DNA of 64,000 nucleotides from Sandaracinaceae bacterium. Its GTDB lineage: Bacteria > Myxococcota_A > Polyangia > Polyangiales > Sandaracinaceae. This document shows, one piece after another, positions 42,301-45,300 of the stretch (position 1 is the stretch's first letter; each line of letters starts with the position of its first letter). The position numbers were made by a program. The stretch covers positions 1-64,000 of the forward strand of contig JBGAQA010000033.1 in the NCBI GenBank assembly GCA_044220955.1. Reading direction: 5' to 3'.

Positions 42301-45300
42301 CGCTCCCGCCGACGTCGAGCGAGGAGACGGTGAGCATCGCGAGCAGGCTGCCGTCGAGCTCCGCGAGCGCGCGGCGGGTCCCGTAGACCTGCCACGCGAG
42401 GCCCACGGGCAGAGCCAGCGCGAGCGCTGCGGCGACGGCGGCGAGCACCGGCGCGGCGAGCGCGCGCGACGCGAGCACGCGCTGCTCGAGGCCGAGGACC
42501 CACGCGAGCACGAACGGCGCGGCGCACGCGAGCGCGACCTCGAGGCCCGCCACCCAGGGCGCGTACGCGTCGTCGAACACGAGCTCGGAGAGCCCGGTGA
42601 CCTGCGCCGTCCCGGCGAGCAGCGCGGGCGACGCCAGCCAGCCGAGGACGAGCCCGAGCAGCGCCAGCGCGCCGAGGACGATCGAGTCGAGGGCCAAGCG
42701 TTCCCAGCGCACGTGCCGAAAAGTGGCCGGTCCGCCGCCGCTTGGCGAGCATCCGGCCGTGCGTCGTCTCTTGCTCGCCAGCCTGCTCGTCGCCTGCGGC
42801 CCGGCGGCGCCCGCCGCCACGGCCCCCGCAGCCGCCCCGGTCGCTCCTGCAGCCGAGTCCGTCCCCGCGGCGGCGGCCGCGACGGTCCCCGAGGGCGACG
42901 CCTCGGCGTCGGAAGAGGACGCCGCCACGCCCGCCGCGACGGGCGAGGCCTTCCTCGGCACGGCCGACGCGCCGCTCCTCGAGGTGCTCGCGCACGCCGA
43001 GATCACGCAGATCGAGCGGGGTACCGGCGGCCGCAGCCTCGCCTTCCGGCTCACCTTCGCGGACGGCTCGCGCGGCTACTTCAAGCCGCCCCAGACGTTC
43101 TCAGGCGCTCACTTCTTCGCCGAGATCGCCAGCTACCACCTCGATCGCATGCTCGGCCTCGGGCGCGTGCCCCCGACGATCGGCCGGCGCCTCTCGTGGG
43201 GCCCGCTGCGCGAGGTCGCCGGCGGCGATGCGCGCACCTCGGAGGCGATCGTCGAGCGCGATCACGTCTGCGGCTCGCTCTCGTACTGGGTGCCCGAGCG
43301 CCTCGTGCCCCTCCGGCTCGGCCTGGGGTGGGAGGCGTGGGTGCGCTTCGCCCCGCCGCCCGCGATCTCCCCGTTCCAGCGCGCGCGCGTGTACGCGGCC
43401 CAGGCGGCGGGCTCGCTCGCGGGGCCCGAGCCGACCGAGACGCTGCGCGCGGCGGACGCGCCCGACACGGAGGATCGCGCGGCGGAGCTGTCCGACCTGG
43501 TGCTCTTCGACTACCTGACCGAGAACATCGATCGCTGGGGCGGTGACTACACGAACGTCCGCACGCGCGGCGCAGGCGGACCGCTCGTCTTCCTCGACAA
43601 CGCAGCCGGCTTCATCGCGTCTCACGCCGCGAGCCCGAGCTTCATGGACGCGCGCCTGCACGCGGTGCAGCGCTTCCGTCGCAGCACGGTCGCCGCCATC
43701 CGCGCGCTCTCGATCGACGCGCTCCGTGCCCGTGTCGAGGGCGACGCCTGCGCGCCCATCCTCGACGAGCGGCTCTACGCCCAGCTCGAGGAGCGGCGGG
43801 CCGCGCTCCTGGCCCACGTCGATCGCATGGTCGCCGAGCACGGCGAGGCCGCCCTGCCCTGGTGAGCGCGAGCTCGCGTCACGGAACGAGCTCCTGTCCC
43901 TCGCCCCAGTGCACGGTGTAGGGGCGCACCTGCAGGATCACGATGTGGCGATCGGGCCCGGCGACGAGGAACTCCACGTCACACGCGTTCGCGTCGCTGC
44001 CGGGCCAGCGCCGCGTGAGCCAGTCGTGCTCGACCGTGAAGTGCAGGTGGAGCACCGTCAGCGCCTCGTCGAGGTGCAAGAGATCGAGCTCCGTGAGCAG
44101 CTCTGCGCCGCCCGTCCGCGACGAGCGCGAGAGCAGCTCGAACTCCGGCGTCTCCATGTACGTGTAGATGAGGTGCTGCTCGGGCACCTCGTCGCCGGTG
44201 GCGCCGGTGACGCTGCCCCCGAGGGCCTGCACGTTGACGAAGTAGCCCGGGCGCCCCTGGAAGAACGGGTTCGCCGTGATCACGACGCCGTTGGCGAACG
44301 CGCCGTCGACGAAGGGCTCGGCCAGGATGCCCATCGCGACCCGGTCGTGCTGCACGCGGTACCAGTCGCGCTCCTCGAACGCGCCGAGCAGCCACACGCT
44401 CGCCCAGACCTGCCGGATCGCGTCGCCGATCTGCGCGTCCGTCGCGTGGGCCGGCACCACGATCGAGCGGTAGAGGCCCGCGCCCGTGAACCCGGGCAGA
44501 TCCTCGGCGTTCGTCGAGCTGCGGAAGATCCAGCGAGCGTCGCGCGCGCCCGTCTCGATCCGGCGGCGGATCTCGCGGACGAGCGCCGGATCGATCGGCG
44601 CCGCCTCGATCCGTGCGCGCAGGTCGGCGAGGGCCGCGTCACGCGCGTGGCCGTCGGACACGAACGCCGGATCGGCCATCATCGGTGCGAGCGTGCTCGT
44701 GATCGCCGCGCTCTCGAGGTGCGCCACGTAGTAGTGGAAGGGGATCGCGAAGCCGCCCGGCGTGAGGATGCCGTCGAGGCTGGCGGCCTCTCCGAGCTGC
44801 GCGGCCTTGGCCCCGACCGTGCGCGCGTCGCCGAGGCGCAGCTCGTCGAGCGGGCGCAGGCGCGCCTCGCTCGCCTCGATCTGCGGCACGAGCGGCGCGC
44901 TCGGCCTGCGCGACGCCCACGCCGCCTCGGCCTCGCTCCGCGTCGCGGCGCGCAGCGTCCACTCCTGCGGAGCGACCGTCAGCGCGACGAGCTGGCCGTC
45001 CAGGCCCGTGATCGAGGGATCGCCGAGCGCGCTCCGTAGTCCCATGTTCGGCGTCTGCCGCGTCGCGCAGAGCACCGCGATGTGGCCGAGCGGCGCCTGG
45101 AGCTGCGCGCTGATCACGCCGGCGACGACGGGGATCTCGTCGGGCAGCTGCTCGAGAACGAGGATCTGGTCGGGTCGCACGCTGGCGAGCTCGAGCGCCC
45201 CGTGCACCACGCGCAGCGTGCCGAAGGCGGTGCCGTTCGTGAGCGGCTCGTACTCGATGCCCTCGAAGACCTCCTCCGTCGTCACGAGCGGGATCTGTCC

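Follow-up and report, generated by a model that had tools for sequence, protein, structure and literature searches.

The locus and its export signal

The window, i.e., the whole 64,000-nucleotide stretch of DNA that was analysed, carries a gene for a Fam20-like lipoprotein that converges on the gene of a second, larger lipoprotein. The features at gene and domain level are as follows:

42759..43865, plus strand: Fam20-like lipoprotein gene, whole, 368 aa, GTG start, stop codon included (open reading frame and translation)
42759..42797, plus strand: signal peptide with lipobox L-V-A-C13, residues 1-13 (direct sequence reading)
42798..42953, plus strand: Ala/Pro-rich tether with an acidic patch, residues 14-65, predicted to be disordered
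42954..43862, plus strand: Fam20-type kinase core, residues 66-368
43879..45903, minus strand: convergent 674-aa lipoprotein (MLRVLLAIGVSALLAC) with a PPDK_N ATP-grasp domain (Pfam PPDK_N, 3.2e-24)

The GC content of the kinase gene is 75%, and its values by codon position (0.76/0.57/0.93 for the frame 42759-43865) resemble those of the adjoining genes. An alternative, longer reading frame starting at 42597 overlaps a minus-strand coding signal, thus 42759 is the likely start, and the copy of the protein in the protein collection (P0002) begins at the same position.

The N-terminus, (M)RRLLLASLLVAC13-G, was assigned by eye to the lipoproteins on the basis of a short basic n-region, a hydrophobic h-region and a lipobox of the form [LVI][ASTVI][GAS]C, with Gly as the +2 residue. 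Cys13 is the predicted lipidation site, at which the signal peptide would be cleaved and the lipid attached. Of the 23 closest homologs, 22 likewise show the lipobox cysteine by eye and the 23rd is N-terminally truncated, which bears out the lipoprotein signal of the survey's finding. A lipobox or a hydrophobic signal-like N-terminus is present in 114 of 120 homologs and in 93 of 104 representatives according to a crude N-terminal heuristic, used for these assignments together with inspection by eye in place of a dedicated predictor. The arginine pair in MRRLLL raised the question of Tat export, which was rejected, as the signal has just 13 residues and the orthologs carry KR, QR or NR. The predicted model has a pLDDT of 55-69 across residues 1-60, and the tether differs in sequence and length between homologs.

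Homology to Fam20 in sequence and fold

The Pfam Fam20C profile (PF06702) matches residues 227-363 at 41.3 bits against a cut-off of 26.8 (E 1.7e-10) and finds 70 of the 104 relatives at E<=1e-3. Searching the PDB with phmmer retrieved Fam20C (3.5e-11), Fam20A (9.5e-11), hydra Fam20 (2.3e-7) and ceFam20 (2.3e-5); the alignment to Fam20C spans residues 72-358, i.e., the whole kinase core beyond the C-terminal Pfam region. With a family profile of 104 sequences the signal rose to 4.2e-40 for human Fam20C (profile positions 83-349) and to between 1e-33 and 4e-31 for Fam20A, hydra Fam20 and ceFam20, while the next family, PI4KII, followed at 0.013. The predicted structure has a pLDDT of 89.2, and Foldseek ranks 1-28 are all Fam20 proteins, so that the fold is nearer to Fam20 than to other atypical kinases, with an identity to any solved Fam20 of 19-26%. 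The homology proposed in the survey from sequence and fold is thus confirmed, and the product is a true bacterial representative of the Fam20 branch within the protein-kinase-like superfamily.

The next structural neighbours are the type II PI4-kinases, CtkA of H. pylori and HipA, which lie below Fam20 by a clear score gap and reach profile E-values of 0.013 or more. The Bacillus spore-coat kinase CotH (5jd9/5jda) has the same superfamily fold, and neither the Pfam match nor the closest fold assigns the protein to the CotH family. The best Swiss-Prot match given in the survey is Four-jointed (FJX1), and the Pfam profile FAM198 (GASK1) matches below threshold (16.2 bits, cut-off 25) and detects 18 of the 104 relatives at E<=1e-3. 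No FJX1 or FAM198 structure appeared among the PDB matches listed.

The active site and its departures from Fam20B and Fam20C

Conservation was counted in 104 diverse cluster representatives, and the following residues of the kinase core were located:

43020..43037, plus strand: Gly-rich loop G88-T-G-G-R-S93 (G90 in 93/104, G91 in 91/104), aligned to 'SGGTQ' of Fam20C
43083..43085, plus strand: Lys109, beta3 lysine in the motif FKP (K in 98/104, R in 4), aligned to the FKP lysine of Fam20C
43107..43109, plus strand: Ala117, non-acidic, aligned to loop Glu306 of Fam20C in HMM alignments in which the loop is uncertain
43122..43124, plus strand: Glu122 of helix alphaC, motif AEIAxYxLDR, at the position of the Glu that forms the canonical ion pair (97 E and 6 D among 104), aligned to the Glu of 'AEIAAFHLDR'
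43269..43271, plus strand: Cys171, half of a co-varying Cys pair, from its co-occurrence with Cys331
43524..43535, plus strand: catalytic loop N256-I-D258-R259 with Asp258 as predicted catalytic base (N256 in 103/104, D258 in 101/104, R259 in 104/104)
43596..43601, plus strand: D280-N281 of the LDN motif with a predicted metal-binding Asp (D280 in 104/104, N281 in 94/104), aligned to LDNG of Fam20
43749..43751, plus strand: Cys331, the other half of the co-varying Cys pair, from its co-occurrence with Cys171

The catalytic loop aligns to NMDRH of Fam20C, the position of D280 is one that we take from Fam20C to bind the metal, and D251 and N266 are present in 104 and 103 representatives, respectively. 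Of the positions called invariant in the survey's finding, D251 and D280 occur in 104/104 representatives, N256 in 103, D258 in 101, K109 in 98 and E122 in 97. In the excerpts of Zhang 2018 available, Glu218 of ceFam20, which corresponds to Glu122, is aligned with Glu91 of PKA, and Asp299 of hydra Fam20, which corresponds to Asp258, is the catalytic base.

The same excerpts describe an acidic residue of the Kβ3-Kα3 loop as essential (Glu306 in Fam20C, Glu213 in ceFam20, Asp152 in hydra Fam20) and its replacement by Gln as part of the basis for the pseudokinase state of Fam20A. This acidic, lysine-pairing residue is absent from the bacterial protein by an alignment that is uncertain in the loop; the column of Ala117 holds S 38, A 31, T 20, E 4, G 3 and Q 2 among the 104 representatives, i.e., S, A or T in 89. 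The protein could therefore be a pseudokinase or scaffold that retains the Fam20 fold, and perhaps nucleotide binding, without catalysis, and that serves an envelope partner, possibly the second paralog type of the same genomes, in the way Fam20A serves Fam20C. The periplasm, which textbooks expect to lack ATP, would suit such a protein, as would the joint retention of the two paralog types (10/10 two-copy genomes) and the composition of the lysine position in the paralog type (R 39, K 35 of 74). We nevertheless regard a loss of catalysis as unlikely, since some of the catalytic set should have disappeared in a lineage of pseudokinases, whereas K109, E122, D258, N266 and D280 are near-complete in the 104 members, unlike in decaying active sites, and the Asp/Asn/Asp set is kept in 73-74 of the 74 members of the paralog type. 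Moreover, the loop Glu could be substituted by the canonical alphaC Glu, which the protein has, and the genes of the two types are unlinked, which does not favour a partnership of the paralogs.

A different chemistry on the kinase fold, such as AMPylation or glutamylation, or a phosphate donor other than ATP, with a target in the envelope, would also account for the departures from Fam20B and Fam20C at the loop Glu, at the His following the catalytic Asp-Arg, replaced by Trp260, and at the Lys or Arg after D-N-x replaced by Ala283. Such activities are known for atypical kinase folds, with SelO and SidJ cited in an excerpt of the review PMC7948968. The residues that are kept are, however, exactly the Fam20 set for phosphotransfer (Lys, alphaC Glu, catalytic Asp and metal Asp), and neither SelO nor SidJ is among the sequence and fold matches listed; we consider a different chemistry improbable.

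The mature protein contains two cysteines, 171 and 331, against a family median of 0. Among 229 homologs both are present in 25, neither in 204 and a single one in none, and all 25 carriers belong to the closest clade, so the pair counts as one evolutionary event. The two residues may form a disulfide, judging by their joint occurrence, which is compatible with folding in an oxidising compartment.

Comparison with the animal Fam20 kinases

The bacterial protein shares with Fam20C (human 5yh3_C, zebrafish 5yh0, C. elegans 4kqa/4kqb) the Gly-rich loop, the FKP lysine, the AEIAxxxLDR helix, the FDxLxxNxDR catalytic loop, the LDN metal site and the C-terminal helical bundle, and each stands behind a secretion signal. 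The bacterial protein has a Kβ3-Kα3 loop some 13 residues shorter than that of Fam20C, with Ala117 in place of a Glu306 equivalent. The large Cys-rich insertions of the animal proteins correspond to gaps in the HMM alignments; the disulfide-rich insertions are a lineage feature of the animal members and are unnecessary for homology. Finally, the bacterial protein is predicted to be lipid-anchored, whereas Fam20C is a type II Golgi or secreted protein, and the two share 21-26% identity.

The survey had described the protein as a counterpart of the casein kinase and xylose kinase. According to the excerpts of Zhang 2018, residues including Gln115, His301 and Lys321 form the Gal-Xyl pocket of hydra Fam20, and the C-D/S-Y-Y-C motif and the Arg after D-N-G exclude sugar from Fam20C. 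Neither set is kept. Relative to Fam20B (hydra Fam20, 5xom/5xoo), His301 is replaced by Trp260 (W 87, F 13, Y 3 of 104) and Gln115 by Ser93, and Lys321 by Ala283 in a mapping inferred from motif spacing; Asp152, the lysine partner of hydra Fam20, is without counterpart. Relative to Fam20C, the C-D/S-Y-Y-C motif is missing and the Arg after D-N-G is Ala283. We know of no proteoglycan linker pathway in bacteria. With both the Fam20B pocket and the Fam20C motifs absent, the comparison to a casein or xylose kinase is an analogy only. The bacterial protein also differs from Fam20A (5wrr/5wrs), the pseudokinase activator of Fam20C, in that it keeps all the other catalytic residues.

Distribution and two paralog types

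Matches to the family were obtained in 46 of 401 sampled Myxococcota genomes, 42 of them above the cut-off. The species-genome collection contains 122 stretches that encode a relative, and among the best 80 of these, 77 are labelled Myxococcota or the old 'delta-proteobacterium' and 3 'uncultured bacterium'. The restriction to Myxococcota, mostly Polyangiales, that the survey had put forward therefore stands within the searched data. At 50% identity there are 756 matching clusters at E<=1e-3 and 364 at E<=1e-10. The protein-search matches listed were unnamed or bacterial only, with no eukaryotic Fam20 sequence among them (for the representatives, among the best 150). A search of proteins of 806-2300 aa with the 104-sequence profile, a weak one that also retrieved no eukaryotic Fam20, yielded no fused or longer forms.

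Two types of the protein can be distinguished, that of the target and a shorter, non-lipidated one, which share 27% identity (hhalign E 1e-36). All 10 two-copy genomes examined hold one of each; the two genes are unlinked, lying on separate contigs or hundreds of kb apart. The second-type paralog of this genome, on another contig, matches Pfam Fam20C at 28.5 bits and has a plain signal peptide without a lipobox, so the survey's description of a lipoprotein with two paralogs does not extend to it. The two types are an ancient duplication kept side by side in Polyangiales genomes; judging by the distribution, it probably arose separately from the vertebrate Fam20 duplication.

As the family was regarded as metazoan, it has to be weighed whether the gene came recently from an animal, or entered the assembly as a eukaryotic contaminant, and serves no purpose in the bacterium. 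Against this speak the GC content of 75% and the GC3 of 0.93 like those of the flanking bacterial genes, the bacterial lipobox, the synteny with bacterial genes in 6 related loci, the hundreds of diverged bacterial clusters, the two ancient paralog types and an identity of just 19-26% to any solved Fam20. We regard such an origin as extremely improbable.

Genomic neighbourhood

The convergent PPDK_N lipoprotein matches PEP synthase and rifampin-phosphotransferase-type chains in the PDB (1e-10 to 7e-7). It was considered as a conserved partner and rejected, because it adjoins the kinase gene in only 6 of the best 80 loci, the closest ones, and the kinase gene is inverted relative to it in 3 of these. 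The small divergent membrane protein encoded at 42227 to about 42706 on the minus strand has a homolog nearby in 1 of the best 80 loci. Other neighbours in the window are NAD kinase, an HD-GYP response regulator and GyrB, while polyamine and thiamine genes lie near the kinase in 33-48 of the best 80 related loci. Among these 80 loci no conserved neighbour points to a substrate. An acidic Ser/Glu-rich parvulin lipoprotein was examined as a candidate substrate and set aside, since it adjoins the kinase only in the loci L067 and L077, too few to count; its homologs in L071 and L079 are without the acidic stretch. There is no NAGPA gene in the 64-kb window that could form a pair with the kinase, the three NAGPA genes of the genome lie on other contigs, and the NAGPA family also matches in 8 of 14 control genomes.

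The Myxococcota are known for predation. An active kinase on the cell surface or in outer-membrane vesicles could work where ATP is abundant, being delivered into or onto prey or host cells, or could use the ATP of lysed prey, and the predicted export, lipid anchor and long flexible tether, together with the confinement of the family to Myxococcota in the searched data, are consistent with such a role. On the other hand, no secretion-system or toxin-immunity genes adjoin the kinase, whose neighbours are housekeeping or unrelated genes, and the stable single-copy pair of types does not resemble a variable effector repertoire. We consider a predation or interaction factor, as opposed to a housekeeping enzyme of the envelope, unlikely.

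Proposed function and relation to earlier work

The protein is predicted to be an active phosphotransferase of the cell envelope, a reading that sequence and structural model make somewhat probable. The Sec signal peptide would be cut at the lipobox and Cys13 lipidated, and the Ala/Pro-rich tether of about 50 residues would place the compact kinase core with its two lobes beyond the cytoplasmic membrane, either within the periplasm or at the surface of the cell or of vesicles. With the nucleotide and metal set kept (Gly-rich loop, Lys109, Glu122, Asp258 in N-x-D-R, Asn266, Asp280-Asn281), the core would most likely bind ATP and a divalent cation and pass the gamma-phosphate on to a hydroxyl group carried by a protein or glycan of the envelope or matrix. 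Pairing with the lysine presumably falls to Glu122 of alphaC instead of the loop Glu, an arrangement known from ordinary protein kinases. Lipidation, location, activity, phosphate donor and substrate are all what we infer from these features.

The Fam20 literature treats these kinases as an animal invention. They are 'Metazoa-specific' in PMC9758233 and 'conserved in animal kingdom' in an excerpt of the review PMC7948968. The bacterial branch is large, old and diverse, with an intact catalytic core. As a model, it offers the fold reduced to its minimum and free of insertions, perhaps with the canonical Lys-Glu pair still at work; it also offers an outgroup for the origin of the secretory-pathway kinases. 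The latter role matches a broader indication, itself under debate, that eukaryotes carry genes from Myxococcota; an excerpt of a 2026 bioRxiv preprint names FAM20B among the possible Myxococcota contributions. This value is tempered by the fact that the homology is already in automatic annotation and has been mentioned in passing in print. The survey's claim of a first prokaryotic Fam20 branch was overstated, as Atlas clusters already bear the name 'Golgi casein kinase, C-terminal, Fam20 domain-containing protein', and its statement that no paper combines Fam20 with myxobacteria is superseded by the preprint. No dedicated study of the bacterial family was found, the literature on 'FAM20' and bacteria concerning mostly the Neisseria meningitidis strain FAM20.

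ATP supply

The periplasm is, by textbook account, without ATP, and an active envelope kinase would put to a stringent test the view that bacteria carry out no chemistry driven by ATP beyond their cytoplasmic membrane. A carrier of the TLC (ATP/ADP-carrier) family is a possible route of ATP to the exported kinase. The genome contains one distant TLC homolog of 445 aa (PF03219, 31.3 bits, cut-off 21), which is its sole TLC-like gene and lies on another contig (C27), and the 64-kb window holds no gene of this family. A TLC-like match was found in 36 of the 46 kinase-positive genomes and in 95 of the 355 others, an enrichment that is confounded by kinship. In the remaining 10 of the 46, no match was obtained at E<=1e-10 with one query, and the 8 of these with a listed completeness reach 95-100%.

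In the boldest form of the proposal, two ancient, exported Fam20-type kinases of the Polyangiales, one of them lipid-anchored, would receive ATP through nucleotide exchangers of the TLC type and act on envelope or matrix glycans or on acidic lipoproteins, and animals would have acquired their secretory-pathway kinases, Fam20 and Four-jointed, from this bacterial lineage with its simpler, canonical Lys-Glu active site; we hold this combination to be doubtful. A TLC-like gene lies within 20 kb of the kinase in at least 13 of the 46 kinase-positive genomes and within 6 kb of it in 5 of the best 80 related loci. Four of these five loci, the fifth being absent from the 69-row tree, are spread over different sub-branches of a single large clade, to which the target does not belong.

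Identity and export of the probable kinase

Judged from its sequence, the gene g03528 encodes a real, exported and probably active Fam20-type enzyme, whose predicted active site departs from that of Fam20B and Fam20C at one residue regarded by the field as essential. The survey had proposed an active extracytoplasmic counterpart of the animal casein/xylose kinase, and this is supported in part: the real, exported Fam20-type enzyme stands, and a casein/xylose specificity cannot be transferred to it. The gene, the parts of its product and its divergent neighbour are:

42227-~42706, - strand: small predicted membrane protein, divergent from the kinase gene, no Pfam match
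42759-43865, + strand: Fam20-like kinase gene, open frame of 368 codons, GTG start
Residues 1-13 and the following Gly (+ strand): N-terminus (M)RRLLLASLLVAC13-G, a short basic, then a hydrophobic stretch, then a lipobox
Residues 14-65 (+ strand): Ala/Pro-rich stretch with an acidic patch, low-confidence in the model (pLDDT 55-69)
Residues 66-368 (+ strand): folded part, pLDDT mostly >90

The Pfam Fam20C profile matches residues 227-363 with 41.3 bits (cut-off 26.8), and phmmer against all PDB chains returned only Fam20 proteins, i.e., Fam20C, Fam20A, zebrafish Fam20C, hydra Fam20 and C. elegans Fam20, the top match being Fam20C (3.5e-11, residues 72-358). With a profile from A1, an alignment of 104 diverse cluster representatives sharing 28-73% identity with the target, human Fam20C reached 4.2e-40, zebrafish 5.7e-37, Fam20A about 1e-33, hydra Fam20 1.7e-31 and ceFam20 4.4e-31, and the next family was PI4KII with an E of 0.013. 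The model has a mean pLDDT of 89.2 and a pTM of 0.83; its Foldseek ranks 1-28 are all Fam20 chains (2e-16 to 1e-10), followed by PI4KIIalpha and CtkA. The Fam20 rows are tied, so that B-like and C-like enzymes of animals are about equally remote from the bacterial protein. The proposed Fam20 homology is thus confirmed in both sequence and fold.

The GC content at codon positions 1/2/3 (0.76/0.57/0.93) follows the pattern of real genes in the window (72-78% GC). The frame is also open from 42597, where the stretch shows the position-specific GC pattern of an opposite-strand gene. Since this long upstream extension is overlapped by the small-membrane-protein gene and carries its pattern, 42759 is the likely start, at which P0002, the collection's copy of the target, begins too. 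Only 13 bases separate the target's stop from that of the convergent gene at 43879-45903.

The lipoprotein signal claimed in the survey was also borne out, as a lipobox of the same kind as that at C13 was seen by eye in 22 of the 23 closest homologs (63-99% identity), the remaining one being truncated. Across the family at large, 48/120 homologs have a lipobox by a crude heuristic and another 66 begin with a hydrophobic, signal-like stretch, and by these counts predicted export is general across the family and predicted lipid anchoring clade-specific. C171 and C331 are the two cysteines of the mature target; among 229 aligned homologs, 25 carry both, 204 neither and none a single one. Because all 25 carriers form the closest clade, this pairing counts as one evolutionary event, and the co-occurrence would fit a disulfide formed outside the cytoplasm.

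Active site

The conserved positions in the 104 rows of A1 are:

D251, R259, D280: kept in 104/104
N256, N266: kept in 103/104
D258: kept in 101/104
K109: kept in 98/104 (otherwise 4 R, 1 E, 1 Q)
E122: kept in 97/104 (6 D)
G90 and G91: kept in 93 and 91 of 104

HMM alignments to Fam20 equate K109 with the FKP lysine, E122 with the Glu of AEIAxxHLDR, N256-x-D258-R259 with the NMDRH loop, in which the available part of Zhang 2018 (PMC5865150) places Asp299, the catalytic base of hydra Fam20, and D280-N281 with the LDNG motif.

The main point where the reading as an active kinase could fail is the ion-pair partner of the lysine. In Fam20, as described in the same part of that paper (PMC5865150), this partner is an essential acidic residue of the Kβ3-Kα3 loop, five residues upstream of the alphaC Glu (Glu213 in ceFam20, Glu306 in Fam20C, Asp152 in hydra Fam20), and Fam20A is a pseudokinase partly through a Gln at this position. 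In contrast, the loop is about 13 residues shorter in the bacterial family, and the position aligned to Glu306 is Ala117 in the target, the column holding S 38, A 31, T 20 and E 4 of 104. Position 111, two residues after K109, is acidic in 68/104 and Pro in the target. With Ala117 and this Pro, the Fam20-specific ion pair would be absent; most simply, K109 would then pair with E122 in the manner of canonical kinases.

Differences also extend to the substrate side. Trp260 takes the place of the His that follows Asp-Arg and binds xylose in Fam20B (column W 87, F 13, Y 3), the residue after D-N-G (Lys in Fam20B, Arg in Fam20C) is Ala283, the Gln in the Gly-rich loop of the animal enzyme is Ser93, and the Cys-flanked loop of Fam20C is missing. 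With these replacements the casein kinase/xylose kinase counterpart is an analogy, and no substrate specificity is transferable from Fam20B or Fam20C.

Distribution and earlier descriptions

Of the clusters at 50% identity, 756 match at E<=1e-3; the number falls to 364 at 1e-10 and to 77 at 1e-30. Among 401 evenly sampled Myxococcota genomes, a match occurs in 46, in 42 of them above the cut-off, with a concentration in the window's own order (22/23, 6/29 and 2/2 in families f3, f2 and f1); none of the 14 control genomes has a match. A one-genome-per-species pattern scan of 185,579 species, which is not unbiased for other phyla because its patterns were drawn from the close family, gave 122 stretches encoding a relative. 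The best 80 of these 122 are all from metagenome-assembled genomes; the label reads Myxococcota, Polyangiales, Sandaracinaceae or 'delta-proteobacterium' for 77 of them and just 'uncultured bacterium' for the other 3. Neighbours in the ESM Atlas are clusters of bacterial (Myxococcota) proteins, and a cluster of 258 members among them bears the automatic name 'Golgi casein kinase, C-terminal, Fam20 domain-containing protein'.

No literature joining Fam20 and myxobacteria by name was found. Among the matches listed, the only relevant paper joining Fam20 and Myxococc… is the preprint 'Origins of eukaryotic metabolism' (10.64898/2026.05.08.723234, available in part), which counts FAM20B among the genes that Myxococcota may have given to eukaryotes, and among those listed for Fam20 with prokaryotes or periplasm, bacterial Fam20 proteins are undescribed save in this preprint. 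The available parts of a Fam20 review (PMC7948968) and of Zhang 2018 (PMC5865150) treat the family as animal, those of the latter never mentioning bacteria, prokaryote or CotH, and FAM20 is called 'Metazoa-specific' in the accessible text of PMC9758233. When a distant relative of Fam20C in bacteria is mentioned in the partial sources available, it is usually the kinase CotH; the target is far closer to Fam20C than CotH is. The survey's first prokaryotic branch is overstated, as automatic annotation already shows bacterial Fam20-type proteins and they have been noted in print once; no dedicated study was found.

Paralog

The second Fam20-like gene of the genome, g03480 on contig C227, encodes a plain signal peptide (…GALRAQD) without a lipobox, and among its relatives the heuristic gave a hydrophobic N-terminus in 70/73 and a lipobox in 2/73, so the two copies are not both lipoproteins as had been proposed. 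The insert that the target carries at about residues 199-238 is missing from the paralog. Members of the paralog's subfamily have R (39/74) or K (35/74) at the lysine position, and 73-74 of the 74 retain the Glu, Asp, Asn and Asp positions. All ten two-copy genomes examined (ten of the 20 in the 401-genome sample, from four genera) have one target-like and one paralog-like copy; the duplication is therefore old, with both types retained. Genes of the two types are unlinked.

Gene neighbourhood

The further features around the kinase gene and in related loci (L-numbers) are:

40141-42186, + strand: 681-aa multidomain signalling protein with MshEN, HD-GYP-type HD domain, receiver and DUF4388
43879-45903, - strand: predicted lipoprotein, 674 aa, MLRVLLAIGVSALLAC, C-terminal half a PPDK_N ATP-grasp; convergent, downstream
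45944-46810, - strand: Cys-rich lipoprotein with repeated 'C..G..CC.GG.C' modules, no Pfam match
L009:9365-10120, - strand: Fic/DOC-domain protein (Pfam 3.5e-11)
L067:4701-5795, - strand: exported NAGPA phosphodiester glycosidase (Pfam 2.1e-38)
L077:6937-7503, + strand, and L067:4101-4670, - strand: small parvulin-type PPIase lipoprotein with an extremely acidic Ser/Glu-rich linker containing many S-x-E triplets

Upstream of the kinase gene lie the signalling protein and an NAD kinase; a homolog of the small membrane protein is nearby in 1/80 loci. The target's gene block, including the adjacent PPDK_N gene, is common only to the six closest of 80 loci, in three of which the kinase gene is inverted and so comes after the PPDK_N gene in the same orientation; the Cys-rich lipoprotein is conserved beside the PPDK_N gene in 5/80. 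The PPDK_N lipoprotein (Pfam 3.2e-24) matches PEP-synthase and rifampin-phosphotransferase-type PDB chains at 1e-10 to 7e-7, and no swivel-His or PEP-utilising domain was detected in it. This immediate neighbour of the kinase likewise combines an export signal with a putative ATP-using domain.

In the large sister clade, the recurrent neighbours are PAD_porph agmatine-deiminase-type (48 loci), Fic-domain (47, including L009), thiamine-phosphate synthase (40), ornithine-cyclodeaminase-family (36) and CN-hydrolase (33) proteins, which look like inherited synteny with cytoplasmic metabolism and not a functional module. The rarer NAGPA and TLC carrier are more suggestive. In 8/80 loci (L017, L054, L064, L067, L071, L077, L079, L080) a NAGPA gene, which the window lacks, is no more than 6 kb away from the Fam20-like gene, mostly divergent and just upstream. 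In L077 and L067 the parvulin-type lipoprotein adjoins the Fam20-like gene, near a TLC-like gene; its L071 and L079 homologs did not come up in a screen for acid-rich proteins.

Possible ATP supply

A TLC-like carrier is a candidate ATP route for the exported kinase. The genome has one gene of this family:

Contig C27:8633-9967 (= L083:1372-2709), + strand: TLC-like membrane protein, 445 aa, distant PF03219 match

It scores 31.3 bits with PF03219 (E 1.3e-7, cut-off 21) and 20.9 bits with TIGR00769, far under the cut-off, and is followed by thiamine genes. Homologs occur in 131/401 sampled Myxococcota genomes, in 36/46 kinase-positive ones versus 95/355 others, which is only a trend since kin are not independent. 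The C27 query had no match in 10/46 kinase-positive genomes; these TLC-negative genomes include G100 and G105, with the strongest Fam20 scores and 98-99% completeness. In 5/80 loci a TLC-family carrier and the kinase gene are no more than 6 kb apart, the L067 copy of the carrier reaching 56.5 bits. When coordinate tables were compared, the distance was at most 20 kb in at least 13/46 genomes, nine of these 13 belonging to one genus, and 2-6 kb in G330, G240, G059 and G085. In a 69-row tree (quick IQ-TREE, midpoint root), which covers four of the five loci linked to the carrier within 6 kb, these four fall on different branches of a single large clade to which the target does not belong.
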